Of a stretch of DNA of 52,785 bases, positions 38,608-52,785 are shown piece after piece. Positions within the stretch are counted from its first letter, which is position 1. Each line of letters opens with the position of its first letter. The stretch comes from a virus (taxonomy: Duplodnaviria > Caudoviricetes). The notes below the pieces were generated by a model that was not told the DNA's origin, ran no database searches, and saw only the letters and a program-made list of their open reading frames with translations. Both the position numbers and the translations under genes were made by a program. The stretch is taken from positions 1 to 52,785 of IMG/VR virus record IMGVR_UViG_3300042291_002130; one strand, given 5' to 3'.

Positions 38608-38853
38608 ATGACTACTGAAATGTTAGAAGAGGTTGCTGCAAACTTAGCAAACCCAAATGTATGTAAAACTCAAAATTGGATTGAAGGAGCTCAATGGGCA
38701 TTAACTAATCAATTCAGTAAAGAAGAAATTAAACTTATTAAAAAATCTCTTGATTTTTATTGGGACCAATGGAATGCTTCTCATGACAGCAATAAAAAGG
38801 ATTGGGATACTACTCAAGTATTATTTAAAAAAATAAAAGAAAATGAAAGATAA
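38608..38853 (+). CDS. 'LEE(A/V)A...GAxW' family paralog 1
   Basis: EMLEEVAA...WIEGAQWA...FSKEE. Confidence 0.55.
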   Translation: MTTEMLEEVAANLANPNVCKTQNWIEGAQWALTNQFSKEEIKLIKKSLDFYWDQWNASHDSNKKDWDTTQVLFKKIKENER

Positions 38854-39004
38854 TCCATTTGTAGATAAGTGCATTGCTCAATCAAAATTAATTGAGTTAT
38901 ATGAACAACAGCTTGTAGATTTAAGTATGCTGTCTAAAATTGAATTGGGTGATGATGTAATTGCAGAGATCATACGATTAAAAGCAGATATTAATATAGT
39001 ATAA
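38843..39004 (+). CDS. Small hypothetical protein (53 aa; below the ORF-track cutoff)
   Basis: Translated by hand: MKDNPFVDKCIAQSKLIELYEQQ... Confidence 0.5.
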   Translation: MKDNPFVDKCIAQSKLIELYEQQLVDLSMLSKIELGDDVIAEIIRLKADINIV

Positions 39005-39028
39005 CAATAATACATAAATATTATTGTT

Positions 39029-39286
39029 ATGAAACAAGAAACATTAGAAGAAGCAGCTGAAAATTATGGATGGAGAATCAAAACAAATACATTCTCTGAT
39101 CCAGTAAAAGCAAATGACTTAGCCAATTCTGCTAAACACGACTTTATAAATGGTGCTAATTACCAAGCTGAAGGAATGTATAGTGAGGAAGATTTAAGGC
39201 GAGCATATACAGTTGGAAAACATGGTGGAGTAAATCAAACGTATTATGATTTTGATGATTGGTTTAAACAAATTAAAAAGAAATAG
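39029..39286 (+). CDS. 'KETLEEAAE' family paralog 2
   Basis: KQETLEEAAE...FINGANYQAEGMYSEED...WFKQIKKK. Confidence 0.65.
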   Translation: MKQETLEEAAENYGWRIKTNTFSDPVKANDLANSAKHDFINGANYQAEGMYSEEDLRRAYTVGKHGGVNQTYYDFDDWFKQIKKK

Positions 39287-39288
39287 TT

Positions 39289-39603
39289 ATGGAAAAAGTA
39301 ATTAGAGATGGTAAAGTAGCTGTTCTTATTTCAAGAGGATTTGGTGCAGGCTGGTCTACTTGGAATACTGAATTTCCAGAACTTATATTCCACCCTAAAA
39401 TTGTTGAATTAGTTGAACAAGATAAAGCTACGACTATACTTGAAGATGACTGGATAGCAGAGAACTTAGGTCACCGTGTCTATACTGGTGGTGCACTCGA
39501 TTTAGAGATCGTATGGTTACCTGAAGGAACCAAATTTATGATTAATGAATATGACGGGTCTGAAAGTATTATTACCTTAGATGATTTAGTATTTACTGCA
39601 TAA
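39289..39603 (+). CDS. Conserved phage hypothetical protein
   Basis: VAVLIS.GFGAGWSTWN...F.P...L.I.WLPEGTKF.I.EYDGSE. Confidence 0.7.
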   Translation: MEKVIRDGKVAVLISRGFGAGWSTWNTEFPELIFHPKIVELVEQDKATTILEDDWIAENLGHRVYTGGALDLEIVWLPEGTKFMINEYDGSESIITLDDLVFTA

Positions 39604-39646
39604 CTACTTGAGGTAACTCAGTTATATTATTATAAAAAGAAATAGT

Positions 39647-40357
39647 ATGAAAAATATATTTATATTACCAACAGACCAACCAAGTAGATTGAGATTTTTT
39701 TGCGGTAGATTAGAGTTAATGAGATTAGTACCTAAAAAATCTGATATAATTTTTCAACACATCTATATCACATCTGATGAAGAGATTAAAGATGGAGATT
39801 GGATGATTAGAGGTAATGAACAACCAACATTAGTTACTCCTAATTTCTTTTGGGATTTTGGGGTTAGATATTATAAAATCATCCTAACAACAGACCCAAC
39901 TCTAATTGCAGATGGTGTACAAGCTATTGATGATGAGTTCTTAGAATGGTTTGTAAAGAATCCTACTTGTGATTTTGTTGAAGTTGATAGAGACGAAAGA
40001 GAAGTTGGAAATCACTTAGGTGGAATTGCTACTGAATATGGTTATTACAAAATCATCATACCAGAAGAAGAACCTAAAAAAGAAACATTAGAAGAAGCTG
40101 CTGAAAAGTATGCTAATAAAGAATTAAATAATGAAGTAACTTCAAAAGTTGGAAATTTCTATGGGTTTAGTAGTTCATTTATGGAAGGTGCTAAATGGCA
40201 ATCTGAAAAACTGTATAATGAAGAAGATGTCAGAGAATTACTTATGAAAGCTTTAACACATAATGACCATAATCTTTGTGGTTCATTGGTTACAGTAGAA
40301 GGTGAAATAAGAACTGCAAATTTTGGAGTTTGGTTTGAAGAAAATAAAAAGAAATAG
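39647..40357 (+). CDS. Two-module protein ending in a 'KETLEEAAE' module
   Basis: N-module KIILTTD..LI.DGVQAIDDEFLEWFVKNP; C-module KETLEEAAE...FMEGAKWQ...YNEED...WFEENKKK. Confidence 0.65.
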   Translation: MKNIFILPTDQPSRLRFFCGRLELMRLVPKKSDIIFQHIYITSDEEIKDGDWMIRGNEQPTLVTPNFFWDFGVRYYKIILTTDPTLIADGVQAIDDEFLEWFVKNPTCDFVEVDRDEREVGNHLGGIATEYGYYKIIIPEEEPKKETLEEAAEKYANKELNNEVTSKVGNFYGFSSSFMEGAKWQSEKLYNEEDVRELLMKALTHNDHNLCGSLVTVEGEIRTANFGVWFEENKKK

Positions 40358-40358
40358 C

Positions 40359-40568
40359 ATGGAAAAAGAAACATTAGACGAAGCTGCTGAACGACATGAC
40401 TCAGATAGAGATTCATTTATATCTGGTGCTAATTGGCAAGCCCAAAGAATGTACAGTAGGCAAGATATAATCGACTTTGTGTACTTCATTAATAGTAGAC
40501 ACTTCAATAGGTATACAGTAGATACCGATGAAGTTGATTTATTTATTGAACAATTTAAAAAAGGATAA
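40359..40568 (+). CDS. 'KETLEEAAE' family paralog 4 (start moved to 40359)
   Basis: MEKETLDEAAE...FISGANWQAQRMYS...FIEQFKKG. Confidence 0.65.
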   Translation: MEKETLDEAAERHDSDRDSFISGANWQAQRMYSRQDIIDFVYFINSRHFNRYTVDTDEVDLFIEQFKKG

Positions 40569-40588
40569 ATTTTTAGTAAGTGGTATTT

Positions 40589-40705
40589 AGTCAGGTGGCG
40601 GAATGGAGTGGGGTGTCCTCGCTCGTTGGTAGACGCACATATCCATACAGGGATGACACAGTACTGTATTACTGTGTCTTACAAGTTCGAATCTTGTCCT
40701 GACTA
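40589..40705 (+). tRNA. tRNA-like RNA 1 (Leu-like scaffold, D-loop insertion, non-canonical anticodon arm)
   Basis: Acceptor AGTCAGG/CCTGACT-A; T arm ACAAG-TTCGAAT-CTTGT; D arm GCG...AGACGC with an inserted GAGTGGGG/CCTCGCTC hairpin; 9-bp variable arm GACACAGTA/TACTGTGTC. Confidence 0.7.
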
Positions 40706-40725
40706 CAAAAATTAAGTAGAGAAAA

Positions 40726-40923
40726 ATGAAGTTATTAAAGGTTGAAGAGTGGAATTATCATATCATATACATAAATGACAATGAAAATTACCAGGTATAT
40801 CGAAGAATAGACCAAACCCGTTGGGAAAAGTACCATAAGAATCAATGGAGACCGATTACTGACTACTCAGCATTAGAAAAACTATTTACCCAAAGGGATA
40901 CCACAAGAGACCAGGTAAAATAA
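40726..40923 (+). CDS. Hypothetical protein following tRNA-like RNA 1
   Basis: AGAGAAAAATG start context. Confidence 0.55.
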   Translation: MKLLKVEEWNYHIIYINDNENYQVYRRIDQTRWEKYHKNQWRPITDYSALEKLFTQRDTTRDQVK

Positions 40924-41014
40924 TCTGATTATGGACCATCACCCTACCTATTGGGGTTCACCGGCCACTCTACTTGATCCCCAAACTAGAAAAAATTGAA
41001 CCCTAAATAGACAA

Positions 41015-41040
41015 CTAGTCTCGGGACTACGGAGTCCAGC
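41015..41040 (+). repeat. ACTACGGAGT hairpin/palindrome site, first copy (CTAGTC-N-GGGACTACGGAGTCCAGC)
   Basis: Exact core at 41026, 41901, 43435, 43762, 44953, 47249, 50480, 52755; one mismatch at 42729 and 43199; all on the + strand. Confidence 0.85.
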
Positions 41041-41132
41041 GTTAGACTCACACTTAAAATATAAACAAGTAATCCTAGAGACTTTTTATTGTCTAAAATC
41101 TTTAGTATAATAGTTTTATAAATGATAACTTT

Positions 41133-41208
41133 AGTCAGGTGAATGGTAATTGGTAACCGAAACCGTCCAGGTGATGTTGAGATGCAGGTTCGAATCCTGT
41201 CCTGACTA
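41133..41208 (+). tRNA. tRNA-like RNA 2 (acceptor + T arm intact; D/anticodon region unrecognisable)
   Basis: AGTCAGG...GCAGG-TTCGAAT-CCTGT-CCTGACT-A; TAGTATAATA ~20 nt upstream. Confidence 0.65.
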
Positions 41209-41233
41209 CTAACTTAAAATAAAAATAAAAATT

Positions 41234-41506
41234 ATGAAAAAATTTGAAGACTTAGAGTTTGAAAAAATTGAAAACGATACATTCAAAACCGGTGTGACTA
41301 GTAGAATGGTGTTTGAAAATGGGTATGGAGTATCTGTCGTTTCGCACACATATTCATATGGTGGTAAGGAAGGTTTATATGAAGTTGCGGTATTAGGTAA
41401 AGATGGAGACTTAACTTATGATACACCAGTAACAAATGACGTAATTGGATATTTAGAACCAGTAGAAGTTACTGATATTATGAAACAAGTTCAAGAGTTA
41501 AAATAA
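41234..41506 (+). CDS. Conserved phage hypothetical protein
   Basis: FENGYGVSVV...SYGG..GLYEVAVL...YDTPVTNDVIGYL. Confidence 0.7.
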   Translation: MKKFEDLEFEKIENDTFKTGVTSRMVFENGYGVSVVSHTYSYGGKEGLYEVAVLGKDGDLTYDTPVTNDVIGYLEPVEVTDIMKQVQELK

Positions 41507-41510
41507 CATC

Positions 41511-41596
41511 AGTCAGGTGGCGGAATGGTAGACGCTATACTTAAGCAGTTGAAGCTGGGTAATTCAACGATACAGGTTCGAATCCTGTCCTGACTA
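41511..41596 (+). tRNA. tRNA-like RNA 3 (Leu-like D arm, no canonical anticodon stem)
   Basis: AGTCAGG-TG-GCGGAATGGTAGACGC...GTTGAA/TTCAAC...ACAGG-TTCGAAT-CCTGT-CCTGACT-A. Confidence 0.7.
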
Positions 41597-41615
41597 CTCT
41601 AATATCGAGAGAAAA

Positions 41616-41882
41616 ATGATAAACCTAGAAGAGATCAAGGAGATCCGAGCCTACACCAGTGGTATTGTTGAAATGGGCTCAGTAACTATTATTATCAATA
41701 ACCGGGAATGGCAGTTTGATATAGAGGAATGGGCAGTACACGGCAACTTGGAATTTCGGGTCTACTTAGCTAGATGGCAAGACTCTAAAGACCTAGCACT
41801 AGAATTAGAAGAAGGTAGAGTAGTAGACAACCACTTTTGCAGATTTATCCAAGATGAATATTACAGGATTACAGCCAAATAA
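41616..41882 (+). CDS. Hypothetical protein following tRNA-like RNA 3
   Basis: AGAGAAAAATG start context, as at 40726. Confidence 0.55.
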   Translation: MINLEEIKEIRAYTSGIVEMGSVTIIINNREWQFDIEEWAVHGNLEFRVYLARWQDSKDLALELEEGRVVDNHFCRFIQDEYYRITAK

Positions 41883-41897
41883 TCACTAGTCTATACC

Positions 41898-42031
41898 GGG
41901 ACTACGGAGTCCAGCTACTAATACTACTATACTAAATAACTAGAGATAAAGATAAGAGAAAAGATCTCTAGATAGAAGAGACCCCAATAGAGATACGCAA
42001 TAACCAGGAACGGAGATCCTAGAGACCCCAA
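41898..42031 (+). repeat. ~135-bp imperfect direct repeat, copy A
   Basis: GGACTAC(G/A)GAGTCCAGCTAC...TCTCTA.ATAGA.GAGACCCCAA.AGAGAT...CCAGGAAC.GAGATCCTAGAGACCCCAA, shared with 43196-43332. Confidence 0.85.
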
Positions 42032-42050
42032 CCAACCAGTCAGCTATACA

Positions 42051-42692
42051 TCAGCCGTGCATCAGCCGTACATCAGCCCATGCCCTAAACCCATCAATAT
42101 CTGCTCTCGACCCAAGTATATGTATGTCCTTTGGATCAAATACCGCTAACTCTACCCGGTCTCTACGATTTGCTTTCAAATGACTAAGATCGACTTCAAT
42201 GCCGCCTCCTTGTTCTAAACTCTTCTTGACAGAATCAAGTTCTCCCTCGTCTTTTAGTTCATTTGGATAACCCAATATTGAATCATATTGACTCATATCA
42301 AAGTGCTGCTTAAGTTTTGCAACGCTCTGAGTAGTCAAACCGGTCTTTTTAAGTATTTCAGCAGCGTTCTCCCTGTTAATTATTAGAGGATTTTTTACGT
42401 TTACTTTAGCAAGTAGTGTTCTTGTTTTAAGAAGTTTTTCAATAAACTTGGGAAGATTGCTCTGCACATCGTAAAAAGAAAAGTAGGCACCTCCTAAATA
42501 GCTCAGTCTAAACTCATCAAACTTTTTAGCGCTTGTTTTGTGAAACATGACCTGTTTTATCCTACTTTCTGGAAATACTGTTTCAAGATATTCCAAATAA
42601 TCTTGATCAGTGCCTATTTCTCGAAGGATATCATCAATTTCTTCTAACTTTATGTGATTTTCATTAATAAATTCATTAAAGCTAACTAACAT
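42051..42692 (-). CDS. ADP-ribosyltransferase-like protein (ART-PolyVal type) with CTS N-terminus
   Basis: MFHKT...FDEF...GAYFS...VNVKNP...YDSI...ELAVFDPKDI (H-Y-E ART pattern); starts MLVSFNEFINE. Confidence 0.6.
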   Translation of the reverse strand: MLVSFNEFINENHIKLEEIDDILREIGTDQDYLEYLETVFPESRIKQVMFHKTSAKKFDEFRLSYLGGAYFSFYDVQSNLPKFIEKLLKTRTLLAKVNVKNPLIINRENAAEILKKTGLTTQSVAKLKQHFDMSQYDSILGYPNELKDEGELDSVKKSLEQGGGIEVDLSHLKANRRDRVELAVFDPKDIHILGSRADIDGFRAWADVRLMHG

Positions 42693-42758
42693 GTTTTCTC
42701 TTTTTTAGTTATTTATTCTAGTCACGGGACTACGGAATCCAGCTCTAGCTATACTAAA

Positions 42759-42786
42759 AGAGTCTCTACTATTGGGCAGAGACTCT
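42759..42786. terminator. Hairpin AGAGTCTCT-N10-AGAGACTCT, probable terminator for 42800-43135
   Basis: Perfect 9-bp stem with a short U-run on the minus strand. Confidence 0.55.
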
Positions 42787-42799
42787 ATTATAATTAGTA

Positions 42800-43135
42800 T
42801 TAGTTAAACTGAACTCTAGCAGTTCCTAATTGTATTTTGTTAGCCCACTTCTTAACTTCAGCTTTAGATCCTGTAAAAGAAACCTCGAACTCAGCATCAT
42901 ATGGTTCATCGTATTTTGGAGTACTGCCTCTTCTTCCCCAACCAGTAAGAGCAGGTTTGCCTACTAATTTTAATCCTTCCGGAAAACCTATTCTATCAAA
43001 GTCTTCTTTAAGAGCTTTAGCTGCTTCTGATTTACTCATTTGATCAGCCCAAGTCCAGTCAAACTCTAATTCAATAGTAGCTTTTCCAAGGGTCTCTTTG
43101 CTTTCATTAAGCCATTCAGTAAATTGTTTAATCAT
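42800..43135 (-). CDS. Small virion-internal protein candidate
   Basis: MIKQFTEWLNES; AATAAATA upstream. Confidence 0.6.
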   Translation of the reverse strand: MIKQFTEWLNESKETLGKATIELEFDWTWADQMSKSEAAKALKEDFDRIGFPEGLKLVGKPALTGWGRRGSTPKYDEPYDAEFEVSFTGSKAEVKKWANKIQLGTARVQFN

Positions 43136-43195
43136 CTTCTAAAAATTTTTTATTTTATTTATTTATTATACTATATTTATTTATTATACTACAAC

Positions 43196-43332
43196 AGGAC
43201 TACAGAGTCCAGCTACCCAGTATCAGTATACCAGAGAATCAAGATAAAAAGAAATAGGTGAAGAGTCTCTAAATAGACGAGACCCCAACAGAGATGCCTA
43301 ATCACCAGGAACAGAGATCCTAGAGACCCCAA
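43196..43332 (+). repeat. ~135-bp imperfect direct repeat, copy B
   Basis: See copy A at 41898-42031. Confidence 0.85.
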
Positions 43333-43463
43333 TCTACTACCTGACTACCCATGCCCCTGATCTAGAACAGTCTTTACCCCTGACCCAGAACTACTTTTAA
43401 ATGCGCCGTCATGTCGCTCCGGCCACCTACGTTTACTACGGAGTCCCGAACGGGAACTTCTCG

Positions 43464-43538
43464 AGGGGCTCAACTTAGGGGTTCAACTTGCCAATTGGGT
43501 ATCACACCGGTGCCACCAACTTTCAAATGAACCCCTAA
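43464..43538. repeat. 13-bp tandem repeat plus 11-bp inverted repeat upstream of the recombinase
   Basis: AGGGG(C/T)TCAACTT x2 at 43464-43489; TTAGGGGTTCA (43475) / TGAACCCCTAA (43528). Confidence 0.7.
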
Positions 43539-43569
43539 TCTCGGGATAAATAATTAAAAAAGTTAAACT

Positions 43570-44259
43570 ATGTGGAGACCAGAGGCACTTGAAGTTCTTG
43601 GATGCAGTATCAGCACATTCAAGAGATATGTAAAAGCTGGCAAGATCAGGTATGATCAAGTCGGGAACCGTTACTTATATTGGGACGATGACGTCTATAA
43701 GCTTAAAGGAAAGCACCTAATCAGGGGTCACTGGTCAGTAGCTTATTGCAGAGTAGCCGGGACTACGGAGTCCGACCGGAGGCTTATGCTCCAACAGCAG
43801 CAGCTAGTCAGGAACTGGTGTGCACAGCGAGGTATCTCTCTAGATAAGTTGTACGATGACTGGGCTCCCGCTACAGACTTCTCGCTAGACTGGAGACCCG
43901 CTCTGCATGACCTGATCCAGGACGTGATCAAAAAGAGGGTGTCAGTAATTATAGTAGAGACTACTGACAGACTGGCCCGAGTTGGCTGGGAGCTCTTTCC
44001 TGCCTGGTTCCAATATTATGGGGTAGAGGTAGTAGTAATCAACTCGGCCATCACCGTGCCAGAATATCAGCTAGAACAGGAAAAGGATCTCACGAATCTC
44101 TTACTTAAAGCTGGTGTAGATCGACTAGACAAGCTTGGTGCTGACTCCTTGCCTAAACCTAAGAAGAGGGAGAAGCGTGAACATCCTGGCAAGATAACTC
44201 CAAACTGGGAAGGAAAACCAGAGGAGCCAACTAAACGGGATCTTTCAGATCTAATGTAA
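43570..44259 (+). CDS. IS607 TnpA-like serine recombinase (N-terminal HTH + resolvase domain), catalytic Ser replaced by Ala
   Basis: EALEVLGCSISTFKRYVKAGKI HTH; AYCRVA instead of Y.RVS; RPAL..L; DRLARVG.E...GVEVVVIN. No tnpB and no IS ends seen. Confidence 0.85.
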   Translation: MWRPEALEVLGCSISTFKRYVKAGKIRYDQVGNRYLYWDDDVYKLKGKHLIRGHWSVAYCRVAGTTESDRRLMLQQQQLVRNWCAQRGISLDKLYDDWAPATDFSLDWRPALHDLIQDVIKKRVSVIIVETTDRLARVGWELFPAWFQYYGVEVVVINSAITVPEYQLEQEKDLTNLLLKAGVDRLDKLGADSLPKPKKREKREHPGKITPNWEGKPEEPTKRDLSDLM

Positions 44260-44309
44260 TTCTTCAGTTCTTTAGCAGAGACACTCGCCAGCCAAGATAA
44301 ATAAACAAT

Positions 44310-44729
44310 ATGAAATCATTTATAGAATTTATAGCAGAGAGTCGGGCATTTGACCTAGACCACTTGCCTAGACTAGGGGAGATTCTTAGCTCGGCTGAAA
44401 GGAACATGCGGGCTCCATACACTTGGGCATTTGTAAGATTTATAGCAGATCAACTAAGGCTGAGCCAAACCGGAGATATTGTAGAGATTGGACCTAGCCA
44501 CTTTAGATTTAGAGACATGCAGGAGATCTACGCCAAGGATCCTCTTTCTTGGGGTCAAAAATCATACAATAATTCATGGTTTAAATATTTTACCGCAAAG
44601 ATAAGATATGTCTGCGAGATGAGTGAAGGCTTAAGATCGGAGGCTATAACTTTCTGGCTCTCTACAGAGGAATATGAAAAGGTATTTGGTATGCCCCAGG
44701 AAATAGATACTATATTCGCTGATTTTTAA
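44310..44729 (+). CDS. Internal head protein with near-canonical T4 capsid-targeting sequence
   Basis: MKSFIEFIAES versus T4 IPII/IPIII MKTYQEFIAE; GATAAATA at 44296. Confidence 0.7.
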   Translation: MKSFIEFIAESRAFDLDHLPRLGEILSSAERNMRAPYTWAFVRFIADQLRLSQTGDIVEIGPSHFRFRDMQEIYAKDPLSWGQKSYNNSWFKYFTAKIRYVCEMSEGLRSEAITFWLSTEEYEKVFGMPQEIDTIFADF

Positions 44730-44976
44730 ATAGGTCCTCCTAAGGGACTCTCCCTTTCTGGATATTAGAATATACTAGTGAGATGAGCTAGCCTCGCCAT
44801 AGGAAAGAGTACCTCTCTAGATTGGGCTCCGGATTCCATGGCATACTAGGCACCCAAACGTCCCAGCGGGCAGGGAAATCCAGAGACTCGGCTCGCTCCC
44901 GTGTACAGGCGGGTGTCACGACGACGCGCGATAGCAGAGACTCGGTAGGGTTACTACGGAGTAAACCCCTTAACCC

Positions 44977-45004
44977 AAAAAATGGGAACCTACTGGCTCC
45001 CATT
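44977..45004 (-). terminator. Rho-independent terminator of the minus-strand block
   Basis: AATGGGA/TCCCATT stem with a U-tract on the minus strand. Confidence 0.65.
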
Positions 45005-45024
45005 CCTAGTCGTCAAACTACCTC

Positions 45025-46200
45025 TTATAATTGCGCGTACTGAGCGAATTGAAGGTCGTAACCTGCATTTACGCCTTTAGCGAAAAGTTCTCCTGCTTGT
45101 GCTTTCAATTCCCACTGATCGGCTAATTCAATTCCTGAATTGTTTGAACCTAGGTAGGTAAGTGAATTTACAACATCCCATATTGACATTCCTGTCTTGA
45201 TAAAACTTTTTTGTTTTTCATTTAACTTGTATGGGTCTTGGCCTTTTTGCATAATGCGGGCCATTGTATCTCTGTGTCCATCAAAGTAGTTACGTTCGAT
45301 AGTATCAATAAAGTTCTTTTTATATTGTGGGTCAGACTCTCTTACTTTACGTTGAGCCAACATCATAGCACTGTCAACTTCAAATAAGCTTGCCTTAGTG
45401 CCAACAGCTGTTGCTAGGGATCCGGCGAATGCAGCAGGTACGAAGCCAGACTTTTTCATAGTATCTACTTTATTTAAGAAGATTCGGATATCGTCGCCAC
45501 TAGTTCCACCTAGTTTAAACTTTTCTTCAAAGTGTAGGTCACGGTTAGAACCAATAGATCCGCTACCGAAACTTACTCTTAATCCATTAGAGCATACTAG
45601 GCGGGTATTATAAGTCTCAATAATAGTATCTTTACTCGACTGGGTAATTGAGAACCCAAATTTAAAGAACTCGTCTTTGCCTGCTCCTGGGAAACCTACC
45701 TCTTCTGAGTTTAGGAAGTTAATGGATGAGGTTCCGCCATTTGGACTGTGGTCAACCGTCTCTATAATTAGGGAAGGGTGTTCGTTCATGATTTTACTAG
45801 TCATATCGAATAGTGAATCATTAGTCAATCGTCGGTATCTCTTAGGATCGCAGATATCAATTACTTCTCGAGTTTGGGTATTAGCAATCAGCAAGACATC
45901 CTTTGCTCCAATACCTCGACGGTATTCGTTTAGTGCATTCATAAATGCTGCAGCCACTTTACCATTGTCGTTCTTAATAAACTCTCTAGTCAAGGAAGCA
46001 TTCATCTTCAGCATGCCAGCAAGTTTCAAGAAAAAGTTAGGGCCAACCTTTACTAGTGTTCCGCCGATTTCAAGTTCATTACGGCTGAACGAAGTGTCAG
46101 TTAATTTAAGTGCAGAAATTGGCACCTGTTTTGTTGCGTGCTCATTAGCTACCATTACTTCTCTGATTGCATCGAACTGGGAATTTGTTACTTCTTTCAT
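45025..46200 (-). CDS. DUF932/DUF945-like protein
   Basis: FGFSIT.S...RLVCSNGL; C-terminal SIWDVVNSLTY. Confidence 0.6.
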   Translation of the reverse strand: MKEVTNSQFDAIREVMVANEHATKQVPISALKLTDTSFSRNELEIGGTLVKVGPNFFLKLAGMLKMNASLTREFIKNDNGKVAAAFMNALNEYRRGIGAKDVLLIANTQTREVIDICDPKRYRRLTNDSLFDMTSKIMNEHPSLIIETVDHSPNGGTSSINFLNSEEVGFPGAGKDEFFKFGFSITQSSKDTIIETYNTRLVCSNGLRVSFGSGSIGSNRDLHFEEKFKLGGTSGDDIRIFLNKVDTMKKSGFVPAAFAGSLATAVGTKASLFEVDSAMMLAQRKVRESDPQYKKNFIDTIERNYFDGHRDTMARIMQKGQDPYKLNEKQKSFIKTGMSIWDVVNSLTYLGSNNSGIELADQWELKAQAGELFAKGVNAGYDLQFAQYAQL

Positions 46201-46265
46201 AATTAAATTTTTTTTAGGTTAGTTTGACTAATATTATAATACTATTTTGGTTTTAACTTTTAAAA

Positions 46266-46295
46266 TTTGGGGAGCATTATTTTTAACTCCCCAAA
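46266..46295. terminator. Hairpin terminator after the RadA-like gene
   Basis: TTTGGGGAG/CTCCCCAAA. Confidence 0.65.
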
Positions 46296-46302
46296 GATAT
46301 TT

Positions 46303-47508
46303 TTATCGACCCATTGAGATAGCTACGTCTGTTCCTAAGTCATCGCTCTCGCCATTGATATAATCAATTATTTCAACCATCTCATCAGTTACCTCTTCTA
46401 CGGAGTGATCTTCTTCGACTGCTCGTGAACCGCCTAGGAAGATATTCTCAAACTCGCGAGTCAAGTCTTGTTGACGTAGGGTTTCAGTATTCTCAAAGCT
46501 TCTAATCTCTTCAGTCTCTTGGAATCGAGCAGTATCGTATACTACTGCACCAGTCTCGTCCAGCTTGTAGTAGAGTCTCTTGCCAGTGCCGCTACCTCCT
46601 CGTCTGTTCTTTGAGAACTCAATATAACGTTGGCCAGCCAAGTCGAAGCGTATCTCTAGCATGGCAGTAGTTGCGTGCTTAAGATAAGTAGAACCTACAT
46701 ACTGACCACCTTTAGTCATGTGTTGAATTGCCAAGACTGCGTTACCGCATTTCTCTGCAGCGTCTATCATCATGTTAGTTAACCAGCTTTCTGCTTTAGT
46801 TGACTTCCAGCCATGCACCTCTTTTAATTTTACTAAGACATCTTGGTAAGAATCTAATAGGATAATATCATGGTCGCCATTGAAACTCTTCTCTAAGACT
46901 TGGGATAATTGACCGTTCTTAACATAGTCCATTAGGAGTAGGGTAGGAACCTTGCCAATAGCTGGGGTCTTGCGGTAATAGAACATAATATCGTTACGTG
47001 TCATCTCGCTAGAAATGTAGAGTATCTTCGCCTCTGGATTTTGGTCTACGATAGAAGCTAAGAGATCTAGCATGACAGTTGACTTGCCGACGCCTGACTC
47101 TCCAATTACAATATTAACTGTTCCGCCATAGAGTCCACCACCTTCTTCGTGATCAGAAAAGAGATCGTCGATCTTCTTGCCTGCCTTGAATAATCCAAAG
47201 CTTGGGAATTCCATGTCCTCTACTCGGATAATATTAGGCTCGTCAGTTACTACGGAGTGACCTATGCGTGGCTCAGCAGGTGTCTCTACAACCGGCGTAC
47301 TTGCTACTGAACTTGCACCATGACCCTCTGCCTGAATCTTTTTGATTACTCCATTAAATAGTCCATAAGAGATATCTTCGTCTTTAGGCACCTTATCAAA
47401 TGCTGTGAATAGATCCAATACCTTAGCTCTTGGTACAACTCCTTCATGGGTATCGTTAAACCATTGACGAACTTCTTGCTCTTTCTTTCCTCCTTTAATC
47501 TCAATCAT
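46303..47508 (-). CDS. RadA/Sms-like RecA-superfamily ATPase
   Basis: GESGVGKST, LYISSE, ILLDSYQ, HMTKGG..VGS..LKH, KNRRG; no N-terminal Zn finger and no Lon-like C-domain. Confidence 0.8.
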   Translation of the reverse strand: MIEIKGGKKEQEVRQWFNDTHEGVVPRAKVLDLFTAFDKVPKDEDISYGLFNGVIKKIQAEGHGASSVASTPVVETPAEPRIGHSVVTDEPNIIRVEDMEFPSFGLFKAGKKIDDLFSDHEEGGGLYGGTVNIVIGESGVGKSTVMLDLLASIVDQNPEAKILYISSEMTRNDIMFYYRKTPAIGKVPTLLLMDYVKNGQLSQVLEKSFNGDHDIILLDSYQDVLVKLKEVHGWKSTKAESWLTNMMIDAAEKCGNAVLAIQHMTKGGQYVGSTYLKHATTAMLEIRFDLAGQRYIEFSKNRRGGSGTGKRLYYKLDETGAVVYDTARFQETEEIRSFENTETLRQQDLTREFENIFLGGSRAVEEDHSVEEVTDEMVEIIDYINGESDDLGTDVAISMGR

Positions 47509-48597: not shown

Positions 48598-49651
48598 TTA
48601 TTGGTTAGGTAATTTCTTTTTTAAGGTTCTTAATCGAGCCTTTAATTTTTTAATCTCTAATTTACGAAAGTAAGGTCCGTGATTCCATGGTGTACATCCT
48701 TCAGGCTGTGCCCAGACACTAACTATTTTAGTCTTGTCGTTTTTAAGAAATTCAATTCTTTCTTCGATGGCTTTGATTTGTTCAAGTATCATAGGTTATT
48801 GGGTTAAGTGCTTAAGTAAATATAACCATTATTCTTTAATCTTGACAATCCTGTGAAAGATTTTTTTGCTTTTGATATTCTTCATGGCACTGTTCAAATT
48901 CTTCAGTTGTGAATACCTTTACTATACTTCCTCCTTCAATCGTTTTAAGACGCTCTCTTAATTGAACCGATTCTACTATTTCAAAGTGTCGGTCTCCTCT
49001 TGGTGAGATGATTAACACAATTCTGATTTCTTCCATGATTTGTATGTTTTAGGTTATAAGTAAATATAACCATTACTTTTTAATCTTGACAATTCTATTA
49101 AAACTATTTTTTAAAAACTTCCAGCACGTTCTACTGCAAATGTTAACTCTATTCCCCATGGAAACTTGTATGCTCTGAAACCACCAGTACCTGCGTTTGA
49201 ACTTGGCTCTTCACTCTCTATTACTGTGGCTAAACTGAATCTAGCAGTACCTCTTAATTCAAAGATAGTCGGTCTTCTGTACTCGTCAGAGGATTGCCAT
49301 TTCCAATCAACTTGATCCATGTGAGCTAACACCTTTTCAAAATCAAAGCGATCCATTATCTTGTCTCTCTGTTCGTATAATTCTTCTTTAGTCATAATAA
49401 GATATTTAAGTTATAATACAAATATAACCAACTCTTTTTAATCTTGACAATCTAGCTGGATAAAAAGTCTAGAGACCCTCGTCCTCGGTGATTGCGGATA
49501 TTGAATCCAATAAGGAGATAAGTTCGGCCCATACAAAGCGTTCAACGTCGGTCTCTGCCGTGCTCAACTCTTGTTGGTACATTTCTTTGCGGTTAGCTAC
49601 AAATTCAGAGACGCGCTCTAGCTTAGTTACACTTAAATCTTTTACTATCAT
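48598..49651 (-). CDS. Four small early hypothetical proteins (48598-48792, 48836-49036, 49111-49395, 49469-49651)
   Basis: The first three each have their own copy of the early promoter. Confidence 0.6.
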
Positions 49652-50473: not shown

Positions 50474-50494
50474 ATCGTTACTACGGAGTAAAAT

Positions 50495-51214
50495 TTATAA
50501 TACTTCTAATTTCATTTTTTGAATCGATGCCTTTACGATTTGAGAAACTCGGACGTTAGTCATCTCGTATTTTTCTGCAATAATATCGGTTGGCATCTCA
50601 TAGTCTCGGCCTATTCCAAAGTAATCCATAATAATTGCTCGGTCTCGGTCTTTAAGAAGGTTTAACGCACACTTAACTTTAAATCGGATTGAATCCATCT
50701 CTATATTGAACTCAACTTCTGATCCAGATTTTAAGACAATATCTCCAATGGTATTTCCACCTTCATCTCCAATTGGTGCATCGATGTCTACCTTACGCGG
50801 AATCTCAATGTCTTCGCCTTTCATCTTTGCTTTATAGATAGCATACTCTTGATTGTGAGGCAGTCTTACAATACGACCAGTCTTAGCAACAGACTCGTTT
50901 AGTTTTTTACGAATCCACAACTGAGCATAGTTAATGAATCGCTGACCGTCTCTAGGTTTGAAATTAAGAGCTGCTTCAAGTAGACCCATGTTTCCTTCTT
51001 GGATTAAGTCATCGATTGGCACACCTTGTCCAATGTGGCGATTTGCAAGCTTAACGACAAACTTTAAGTTTGCGCTTACTAATTTTTCTACTGCTTTAGC
51101 GTCTCCCTCTTGGATTGCTACTACTAATTGTTTCTCTTCGCCGATAGTAAGGGGCGCGTTCTTTTGTATTGTTTTAAAATACTTAGGTAGGTTTTCTGAT
51201 GTTTCGAATTTCAT
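50495..51214 (-). CDS. RNA polymerase sigma-70 family factor (RpoD/SigA-like, no region 1.1)
   Basis: KLVSANLKFVV, DLIQEGNMGL..AA..F, RFINYA..WIRK, RIVRLP, region 4 L..RDR.I...FGI...RVSQI. Confidence 0.92.
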   Translation of the reverse strand: MKFETSENLPKYFKTIQKNAPLTIGEEKQLVVAIQEGDAKAVEKLVSANLKFVVKLANRHIGQGVPIDDLIQEGNMGLLEAALNFKPRDGQRFINYAQLWIRKKLNESVAKTGRIVRLPHNQEYAIYKAKMKGEDIEIPRKVDIDAPIGDEGGNTIGDIVLKSGSEVEFNIEMDSIRFKVKCALNLLKDRDRAIIMDYFGIGRDYEMPTDIIAEKYEMTNVRVSQIVKASIQKMKLEVL

Positions 51215-52666: not shown

Positions 52667-52785
52667 ATCGTTTTGTTTTTAAGTTATAAGTAAATATAAC
52701 CATTACATTTAAACAAGTACAATCTTATTGAAACTTTTTTACTAGAGACTCTTTACTACGGAGTAAAAAGAAAAGGGTCAGCTTG

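Follow-up and report, generated by a model that had tools for sequence, protein, structure and literature searches.

A strictly polar 10-mer and a nucleophile-less IS607 TnpA homolog in uncultured freshwater jumbo phages: possible binding sites of a domesticated transposase

What use could a phage have for a serine recombinase that appears to be catalytically dead, encoded amid repeated copies of one short DNA site? The question is raised by positions 40589-45024 of the IMG/VR virus record IMGVR_UViG_3300042291_002130, which was analysed at its whole length of 52,785 bases (the window) and is classed as linear and estimated to be 21% complete. An earlier note on this DNA had described units of a tRNA-like element and a small open reading frame (ORF), a polar array of hairpin sites and an IS607-like recombinase at the strand switch of the genome, and had seen in them either an integron-like cassette array or a nucleoprotein structure built by a domesticated transposase. 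Because the 52.8-kb record is estimated to be 21% complete, the window is a fragment of a jumbo phage genome of roughly 250 kb. Its gene products include a portal protein, a nicotinamide phosphoribosyltransferase, a ribose-phosphate pyrophosphokinase and a sigma factor with regions 2 and 4. Genes are on the plus strand up to 41882, and from 45025 onwards every long ORF is on the minus strand. The strand switch is thus present in the window, but since the window is a fragment it is a local switch and not one of the genome.

The site itself is a strictly polar 10-mer with the core ACTACGGAGT (motif A), which reads ACTCCSTAGT in the direction of the early genes. Allowing one mismatch it is found 12 times in the window, against a mean of 1.24 and a largest count of 6 in 100 shuffles, 0 of which attained 12. 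The nine exact copies, between 41026 and 52764, are all on the plus strand (Table 1), in agreement with the polarity that had been noted. Copies with one mismatch at two minus-strand cargo genes (42729 and 43199), and copies ahead of and inside the recombinase gene (43435 and 43762), were also found as reported, and reading 40300-45400 recovered all strings and coordinates quoted for the first and third units. The system is not confined to 40589-45024, as had been thought, because exact copies at 47249, 50480 and 52755 continue the array past 45024. A full-text search with both strands of the 10-mer found no published description of it, the matches listed looking like primers or unrelated contexts.

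The window belongs to a family of uncultured freshwater jumbo phages. Near-identical DNA is present in lake-water metagenomes, and no kinship to any cultured phage was found in the GenBank phage collection: a DNA comparison of 40000-46500 with 50,697 GenBank phage records gave no match, and the best protein relative there of F5, a RecA/DnaB-like ATPase, comes from an uncultured 484-kb phage (33% identity). All relatives used here are metagenomic contigs, several of them near-duplicates, and their ORF calls are crude. A search with the recombinase homolog gave 67 close homologs (49-90% identity), of which one is found in each of seven viral loci that represent five distinct contigs. Against circularity, a second search was made with the F5 ATPase (46303-47508), which is independent of both the motif and the recombinase, and gave 33 loci from lake metagenomes, several near-duplicates included. 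The non-redundant set comprises 18 genomes with 166 motif sites. One relative is complete (G006, 270,962 bp) and a second is 94% complete.

In the five relatives found through the recombinase, 59 of 60 motif copies lie on the same strand, in blocks of about 20-25 kb where contig coverage allows. All 33 loci found through F5 contain ACTCCSTAGT read along F5, with 291 copies forward and 1 reverse in 592 kb; variants with A or T as the central base occur once and twice, respectively. This base is G in the clade of the window and C in a sister clade (ACTAGGGAGT), and some genomes are mixed. The motif is confined to one region: in the complete genome all 10 copies fall within 255,208-263,395 (8.2 kb), the rest of the genome being without it, and the 94% complete relative has 12 copies inside 11 kb.

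The only symmetry of the motif is an internal ACT...AGT. At some copies in the window the flanks extend it to the hairpin for which the sites had been named (GGACT/AGTCC and TTACT/AGTAA), but family-wide the extended hairpin was rejected, as the flanks pair in 70 of 166 sites compared with 68.0 for shuffled partners across the 18 genomes.

The recombinase homolog is indeed IS607-like. Pfam identifies HTH_17, a helix-turn-helix (HTH), at residues 5-37 (21.4 bits, cut-off 27) and Resolvase at residues 57-161 (E 1.6e-10), and the NCBIfam equivalog for IS607, NF033518, scores 80.1 bits, under its cut-off of 110. The best Foldseek matches of an AlphaFold model (pLDDT 67.8) are the catalytic domains of IS607-like TnpA proteins, 6dgc, 3lhk and 6dgb. 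Protein searches with the homolog matched only bona fide IS607 TnpA, at 25-34% identity. In PADLOC, mad1 was matched only by its HTH, with one weak CARF match besides.

The model contains a strand at residues 55-62, a loop at 63-66 (AGTT) and a helix starting at residue 67, and A63 aligns with the nucleophile serine (Y-x-R-V-S) of 3lhk and 6dgc. In 21 aligned homologs the canonical serine position is occupied by A, P, G or N, and G64, T65, T66, E67 and S68, the same five residues that the DNA motif encodes, are at least 90% conserved. The two-clade alignment has no invariant serine or threonine column; the invariant residues are G24, G47, Y59, R61, Q76, G88, E130, R134, R137, G151, V152 and E169. 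A profile search of 1.84 billion representatives gave 52 proteins at E <=1e-30. Of the best 150, 140 were of suitable length; the pattern with which they were examined for R-x-S parsed 83 and left 57 unparsed. R-x-S was found in 2 of 18 parsed proteins of ranks 1-30 (the phage clade) versus 58 of 65 in ranks 31-150, the later rank bins having 14/14, 22/25 and 22/26, with YxRVS[ST]xxQK as in bona fide TnpA. These alignments give good support to a clade-wide loss of the catalytic serine, and the designation as catalytically dead appears justified. The retention of the arginines suggests that the pocket still serves some purpose.

In all 29 loci that cover this place the recombinase homolog is located beside F4, on the opposite strand (the other four loci end earlier). 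Since it keeps the same syntenic place throughout, the gene is not mobile. The motif co-occurs with it in all 29, so the association on which the earlier note depended is found across the family. No TnpB partner was found, and the ORFs neighbouring the homolog are without family match. In the window's clade the C-terminus (residues about 190-229) is a disordered tail ending ...RDLSDLM, with L225, S226 and L228 unchanged throughout 21 sequences; this tail, absent from the sister clade, resembles a short motif for docking to a partner protein.

Motif and gene are also linked by distance. A motif copy lies 124-151 nucleotides (nt) upstream of the first ATG of the recombinase homolog in 11 of the 18 non-redundant genomes and 191-203 nt inside the gene in 9 of them, the two being spaced by about 327-354 bp where both are present. 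These distances are kept across clades at only 29-35% protein identity. The copy inside the gene encodes GTTES, in the catalytic loop, in the window's clade, whereas in the sister clade it is read in another frame as LLGS, at the end of the HTH. Because the distances hold while the frame and the part of the protein differ, it is the DNA layout at the 5' end of the gene, and not the peptide, that is conserved. Furthermore, the sister clade has a tandem motif array of 3-5 units of 57-58 bp upstream of the homolog, and 17 of the 18 genomes have a motif copy in or just past F5.

Selection acts on these copies at the level of DNA. In the recombinase gene the 15 bases GGG ACT ACG GAG TCC are identical in all six window-clade genomes, and the codons flanking them vary synonymously (TAT/TAC, TGC/TGT, AGA/AGG/CGA and CGG/CGA/CGC). 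In F5 the motif fixes S-V-V amid a hypervariable, otherwise unalignable linker. Other coding copies of the sister clade, two in F5 and one in the sigma-factor gene, are always in the frame xAC TCC CTA GTx, which differs from that of its recombinase gene, where the motif is read as L-G-S. In the recombinase homolog and in a neighbouring gene, the DNA motif overrides codon choice.

The best reading of these observations, which we put forward tentatively, is that the 10-mers are binding sites of a domesticated, inactive TnpA that does not cut. It is preferred because the TnpA architecture is kept and because the sites are clustered at the 5' end of the protein's own gene, at fixed distances, with a GG or GGG centre and all parallel. 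PMC6188088 describes IS607 TnpA as a protein that recognises, via its N-terminal domain, several subterminal motifs of about 10 bp close to the gene encoding it, coats DNA cooperatively as a filament, captures a second DNA or pairs ends in parallel, and carries out exchange at a GG; the centre of the phage motif is likewise GG or GGG. The phage protein would be a descendant of such a serine transposase that has lost the nucleophile, has kept the N-terminal HTH and an arginine-lined pocket, and has become fixed at one position, antisense within a co-directional early/replication block. It would bind the asymmetric 10-bp site in three settings, as a cluster or tandem array just upstream of its gene, inside the gene, and as dispersed co-oriented copies over 8-27 kb. 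By analogy to IS607 TnpA it might bridge sites and so loop its own promoter region, where sites are about 330-350 bp apart. Bridging could perhaps extend to the whole block; it would serve regulation or architecture and not recombination. In this form the nucleoprotein structure of the earlier note is retained, with the recombinase homolog as its binder and the outcome of binding as steps that we infer.

A more far-reaching version is possible but doubtful. A nucleophile-less TnpA, domesticated family-wide, would read a one-directional 10-bp code. Bound at 10-15 co-oriented sites, it would fold the early/replication block or act as its gate, for instance by a stack of parallel-paired loops, by directional roadblocks or by capturing phosphate at the GG core in a strand-specific manner. 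The DNA code would then dictate amino acids in the catalytic loop of its own reader, in the replicative ATPase and in the sigma factor.

Several points weigh against binding by the homolog. The motif is invariant save for the central G/C, although the HTH domains have diverged to about 30% identity, and there is no covariation between protein and site. F5 and the sigma-factor gene of the sister clade also hold the motif, so the recombinase homolog is not alone in having a site within its gene. The genes of the block are all co-directional with the motif, and co-orientation with transcription explains the polarity equally well. The array spacing of 57-58 bp is unlike the roughly 10-bp spacing of IS1535 motifs, and three genomes (L047, L053 and L054) have no motif copy upstream of the gene in the sequence covered. 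Finally, the nucleophile comparison leaves out the 57 library proteins in which R-x-S was unparsed.

Table 1. Features of the locus and of the neighbouring conserved block (positions in the window).
Feature	Position	Strand	Remarks
tRNA-like element 1	40589..40706	+	family acceptor stem and T arm, 23-nt D-loop insertion, expanded core
Small ORF 1, 65 aa	40726..40923	+	no family match
Motif A, exact	41026..41035	+	within GGGACTACGGAGTCCAGC
tRNA-like element 2	41133..41209	+	Rfam tRNA, 32 bits
Small ORF 2, 90 aa	41234..41506	+	phrog_4074, function unknown
tRNA-like element 3	41511..41597	+	ARAGORN tRNA-Leu(AAG), weak anticodon stem; passes Rfam threshold
Small ORF 3, 88 aa	41616..41882	+	no family match
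Motif A, exact	41901..41910	+	start of first site + R repeat
R repeat, copy A	41916..42040		core 41965-42036, 86% identical to 43266-43337
Cargo gene, 213 aa, variable	42051..42692	-	no family match, no homolog in 17 compared relatives
Motif A, one mismatch (ACTACGGAAT)	42729..42738	+	starts 37 nt upstream of start codon of 213-aa gene
Cargo gene, 111 aa, variable	42800..43135	-	no family match
Motif A, one mismatch (ACTACAGAGT)	43199..43208	+	start of second site + R repeat
R repeat, copy B	43214..43340		partner of copy A; R = 125-nt repeat
Motif A	43435..43444	+	135 nt upstream of start codon of recombinase homolog
IS607-TnpA-derived protein, 229 aa	43570..44259	+	HTH_17 and resolvase fold, nucleophile serine missing
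Motif A	43762..43771	+	192 nt past ATG of recombinase homolog; encodes TTE of loop AGTTES
Variable ORF, 139 aa	44310..44729	+	no family match; not a TnpB
GC-rich non-coding stretch past F4	44735..44950	-	conserved, no known RNA family, little covariation
Motif A	44953..44962	+	just past hairpin and T-run ending F4 on minus strand
F4, 391 aa	45025..46200	-	conserved, function unknown; syntenic neighbour of recombinase homolog
F5, RecA/DnaB-like ATPase	46303..47508	-	motif A at 47249-47258 encodes invariant S-V-V
Motif A	50480..50489	+	21-nt gap between sigma-factor gene (50495-51214) and next gene
Motif A	52755..52764	+	between terminator-like hairpin and early promoter module

An alternative that makes direct use of this co-orientation, and that we consider unlikely, is that the 10-mer is a transcription-coupled signal along the early genes and the recombinase homolog an unrelated neighbour. 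Acting in non-template DNA or in RNA, the signal could cause pausing or antitermination in the manner of ops, mark a site of processing or be a non-sigma70 promoter. An ACT/AGT mini-hairpin is possible in single-stranded DNA, which is the way ops is read. Consistent with such a signal, the motif is co-oriented with nearly all block genes in every genome, 81 of the 166 sites are intergenic although the spans are about 83% coding by the crude ORF call (about 17% non-coding), and 42 of 48 sense-strand coding copies are in one frame. A hairpin and T-run immediately precede the motif in several relatives. Window copies are found in the leaders of both cargo genes, the one at 42729 being 21 nt past a terminator-like hairpin (42759-42786), and the copy at 50480 starts 7 nt from the ATG of the gene next to the sigma-factor gene.

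The promoters of the block argue otherwise. It is served by seven sigma70-like modules on the minus strand (52698, 52466, 51250, 49427, 49068, 48824 and 48039), near-identical to each other and of the form (GTCTCT, at about -60 in several)-A/T tract-TTGTCA-N18-TATATT(TAC)-leader TATAACTTAAAAACAAAA-ATG, three of which are preceded by a hairpin and T-run. Because only one of the seven has motif A upstream, the motif is neither the promoter of the block nor a fixed activator site, and a role as its sigma70-type promoter is ruled out by the TTGTCA-N18-TATATT modules, six of which are without the motif. Nor has it a fixed position relative to terminators: some genomes have it after the T-run, others within the hairpin. 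In two sister-clade loci (L036 at 12269, L053 at 9139) it lies within the terminator stem-loop after F4, its genomic place kept and the surrounding element changed. The copies at 41026 and 41901 keep their absolute orientation among genes of the opposite strand, and the remainder of the 271-kb genome has no motif at all. A NusG/RfaH-like gene (NusG paralog, PF02357) was found in none of five phage records, which include one complete and one 94% complete genome, with the control positive in 10 of 14 genomes; a host-encoded NusG-type factor may act at the motif. The search for a T7-like RNA polymerase (PF00940) matched none of the five, but the control matched nowhere either, so this result is uninformative. 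A metatranscriptome sample (X24) has short contigs over 41987-42197, 43563-43795, 44919-45199 and F5; strand and ends are invisible in them and DNA carry-over is possible, and they were made the basis for no conclusion about expression.

It is quite improbable, in our judgement, that the motif instead marks strand-specific DNA events in the part of the genome with the replication genes, such as T5-like nicks, loading of primer or helicase, or directional entry or packaging. The absolute polarity (291 to 1), the restriction to a block with a RecA/DnaB-like ATPase and the DNA-level constraint on coding copies would all be in line with it, and the recombinase homolog could still accommodate a phosphate in its conserved arginine pocket. 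However, the GC skew of the complete relative has no extremum or landmark at the motif block. Its 127-bp terminal repeat has a length compatible with an assembly overlap, so that true genome ends are not defined by the record, and contig data are unable to reveal DNA ends or nicks.

The integron-like array of the earlier note, in which the recombinase would cut and rejoin DNA at the central GG of the 10-mer and so move gene cassettes, is very improbable. The layout does resemble intI, attI and cassettes: the gene order in all 18 maps is sigma factor ... F5 - F4 - (variable) - recombinase homolog (antisense) - motif cluster or array - variable genes, and each cargo gene in the window's clade has its own site. 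The genes past the array are mostly unique to one genome, so ORF content varies between relatives as had been expected, but the junctions seen are not at the 10-mer. IS607 exchange also uses GG (PMC6188088), and T65, T66 and S68 are at least 90% conserved in the window's clade; these are, however, residues encoded by the DNA motif itself, and no nucleophile is conserved family-wide. The sites are not palindromic, and no attC-like palindrome was found. Furthermore, the copies in F5 and before essential-looking genes are direct repeats, and exchange between them would delete those genes.

The indels observed point in the same direction. Two copies of the site followed by the 125-nt R repeat (41901-42040 and 43199-43340) flank both minus-strand cargo genes, and one lake contig (depth 4.46) joins 42087 to 43396, without both cargo genes and one of these copies. 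Such a loss would be expected of an integron-like array, but both joint ends lie beyond the R repeats. In the lake metagenome runs X3 and X5, 48813-49056 is absent together with a 66-amino-acid ORF (48836-49036), a natural cassette indel; the joint of 48812 to 49057 is inside two promoter modules having 19 letters in common and is the one clean case, the other indel joints having short sides or being placed at 85% likeness. A gene swap between two relatives (G001 and G002) has one boundary in a 110-nt module round a site and the other at the end of a conserved gene, so only one boundary is near a site. The end-points of the indels seen seem to fall in repeated promoter/terminator modules or in the 125-nt R repeat, and not at the 10-mer. 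We propose that cassette turnover beside the locus is a separate process, namely recombination between repeated regulatory modules. Directly after R copy A, at 42040-42078 and overlapping the 3' end of the ORF for the 213-amino-acid protein, there are three tandem 11-nt units (TCAGCCGTRCA).

That the motif is a functionless but conserved piece of such terminator/promoter modules, spreading PeSL-like by recombination, is scarcely credible: composite modules exist (terminator, GTCTCT, A/T tract, TTGTCA-N18-TATATT, leader), one cassette indel lies between two of them (48812 to 49057 in X3 and X5), and PeSL-mediated shuffling is described for T4-like phages in PMC4122927, but the motif is missing from six of the seven window modules, persists in coding sequence with frozen synonymous sites, and is invariant between clades whose surrounding modules are completely changed.

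The units of tRNA-like element and small ORF, which had been seen as framed by conserved cassette boundaries, turned out to have another character. The three elements (AGTCAGG...CCTGACTA) fold into an acceptor stem and a T arm; AGAGAAAAATG is located ahead of the ORF starts at 40726 and 41616, AAATAATC at both ORF ends, and ACTAGTCT..GGGACTACGGAGTCCAGC at 41015-41040 and 41887-41915. Two of the three elements pass the Rfam tRNA threshold of 29 bits (41.7 and 32 bits, with the anticodon region unaligned), and element 1 is missed by both Rfam and default ARAGORN and called by relaxed ARAGORN. Default ARAGORN calls only the third element, with 3 of 5 pairs in the anticodon stem. At E <=1, Rfam gave only the two tRNA matches over 39500-46000, and the GC-rich stretches matched nothing.

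A 22-nt 3' half of the elements, GGTTCGAATCCTGTCCTGACTA, is identical in distant relatives, usually just past the motif array and followed by small ORFs. Across the family the acceptor stem, the T arm and often the D arm are constant, core length is very variable (73-125 nt overall), and most elements pass the Rfam threshold only narrowly, at 30-50 bits. Copies number three in the window, four in the complete relative (48,327, 263,791, 263,991 and 267,940) and four in tandem in another locus (L048, 14239-14845). Judged by their sequence they form a set of degenerate tRNA-like genes common to the whole family, in which the 'top half' of tRNA is kept, and do not mark cassette ends at this locus in particular. 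Their ancestor may have been a tRNA-Leu, from the likeness of the D arm. One guess is that they may serve as processing signals for the downstream ORFs. The 24-nt 3' half matched 18 contigs of metagenome-assembled genomes among GTDB genomes, about 10 of them labelled Bacteroidota. None of these matches is inside a tRNA called by default ARAGORN, so the 24-mer does not copy a tRNA of the host, about whose identity the labels give a weak hint at most.

Some further features of the region were noted. The model of F4 (pLDDT 79.6) has no fold match in PDB at E <=0.001, and DUF932 was weakly matched in 4 of 16 members. Past F4, about 200 nt within 44735-44950 are conserved in four genomes, for example GCTATCGCGCGTCGT, CGTACACGGGA, CCCTGCCCGC and CTACCATGG, with two GGTCTCT boxes. 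RNAalifold on the minus strand of 44735-44965 in four genomes gave changes on both sides in 2 of 37 pairs, and no structured RNA is claimed. On the plus strand, at 38608-40568, four adjacent small ORFs have a common N-terminal ...ETLEEAAE... segment (blastp family F1) and form a local paralog family; a 29-nt DNA repeat occurs at 40077 and 40363 (97% identical).

If the domestication of TnpA is true, a bacteriophage would here have recruited a transposase for a function of the genome that hosts it. The signature is unusually clean, an invariant and strictly polar set of sites in about 3-10% of a genome of 250-270 kb. It would offer a tractable system for how serine-recombinase folds bind or pair DNA without cutting, and would bear on the organisation and timing of the early region in jumbo phages. 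Regardless of mechanism, the motif, the clade-wide loss of the serine and a DNA signal that prevails over codon choice are solid ground for annotating this phage family.

Compared with known systems, the block shares with the PeSL cassettes of T4-like phages, whose indels end in repeated regulatory modules (PMC4122927), composite terminator/early-promoter modules between small early genes and, in the one clean case, an indel that ends there. Unlike PeSL cassettes, which have no dedicated protein, the phage system has a separate, invariant and polar 10-mer. With an integron it has in common a recombinase gene divergent from a site cluster, variable genes following, and a cassette content that varies. 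Unlike integrons, with their tyrosine recombinase IntI and attC, the fold is of the serine type and without nucleophile, there is no attC-like imperfect palindrome, and sites are also found in conserved core genes. The clustering of about ten copies of a short site in a limited region, with the presumed binder's gene in its midst and one copy inside that gene, recalls ParB/parS; the spo0J gene of B. subtilis contains a parS site. parS is palindromic and without orientation, whereas the phage site is non-palindromic and oriented, and the protein families are unrelated.

Closer in fold is Tn3/gamma-delta resolvase, a catalytically active repressor at res, a single locus between the divergent tnpA and tnpR. 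The presumed sites of the phage protein are likewise clustered in a divergent region between its own gene and the neighbours, but the phage enzyme looks inactive and its sites are dispersed and strictly co-oriented. Unlike IS607 TnpA, the phage protein has no nucleophile serine, reaches 80 bits where NCBIfam asks for 110, is immobile and has no TnpB, and its sites, spaced at 57-58 bp or at kilobases, extend to 8-27 kb from the gene. It is nevertheless with the IS607-family TnpA proteins (IS607, IS1535 and ISC1926) that it shares an N-terminal HTH of the MerR/excisionase type followed by a resolvase catalytic fold and, with the sites compared by description, short repeated motifs with a central GG near the 5' end of its own gene.

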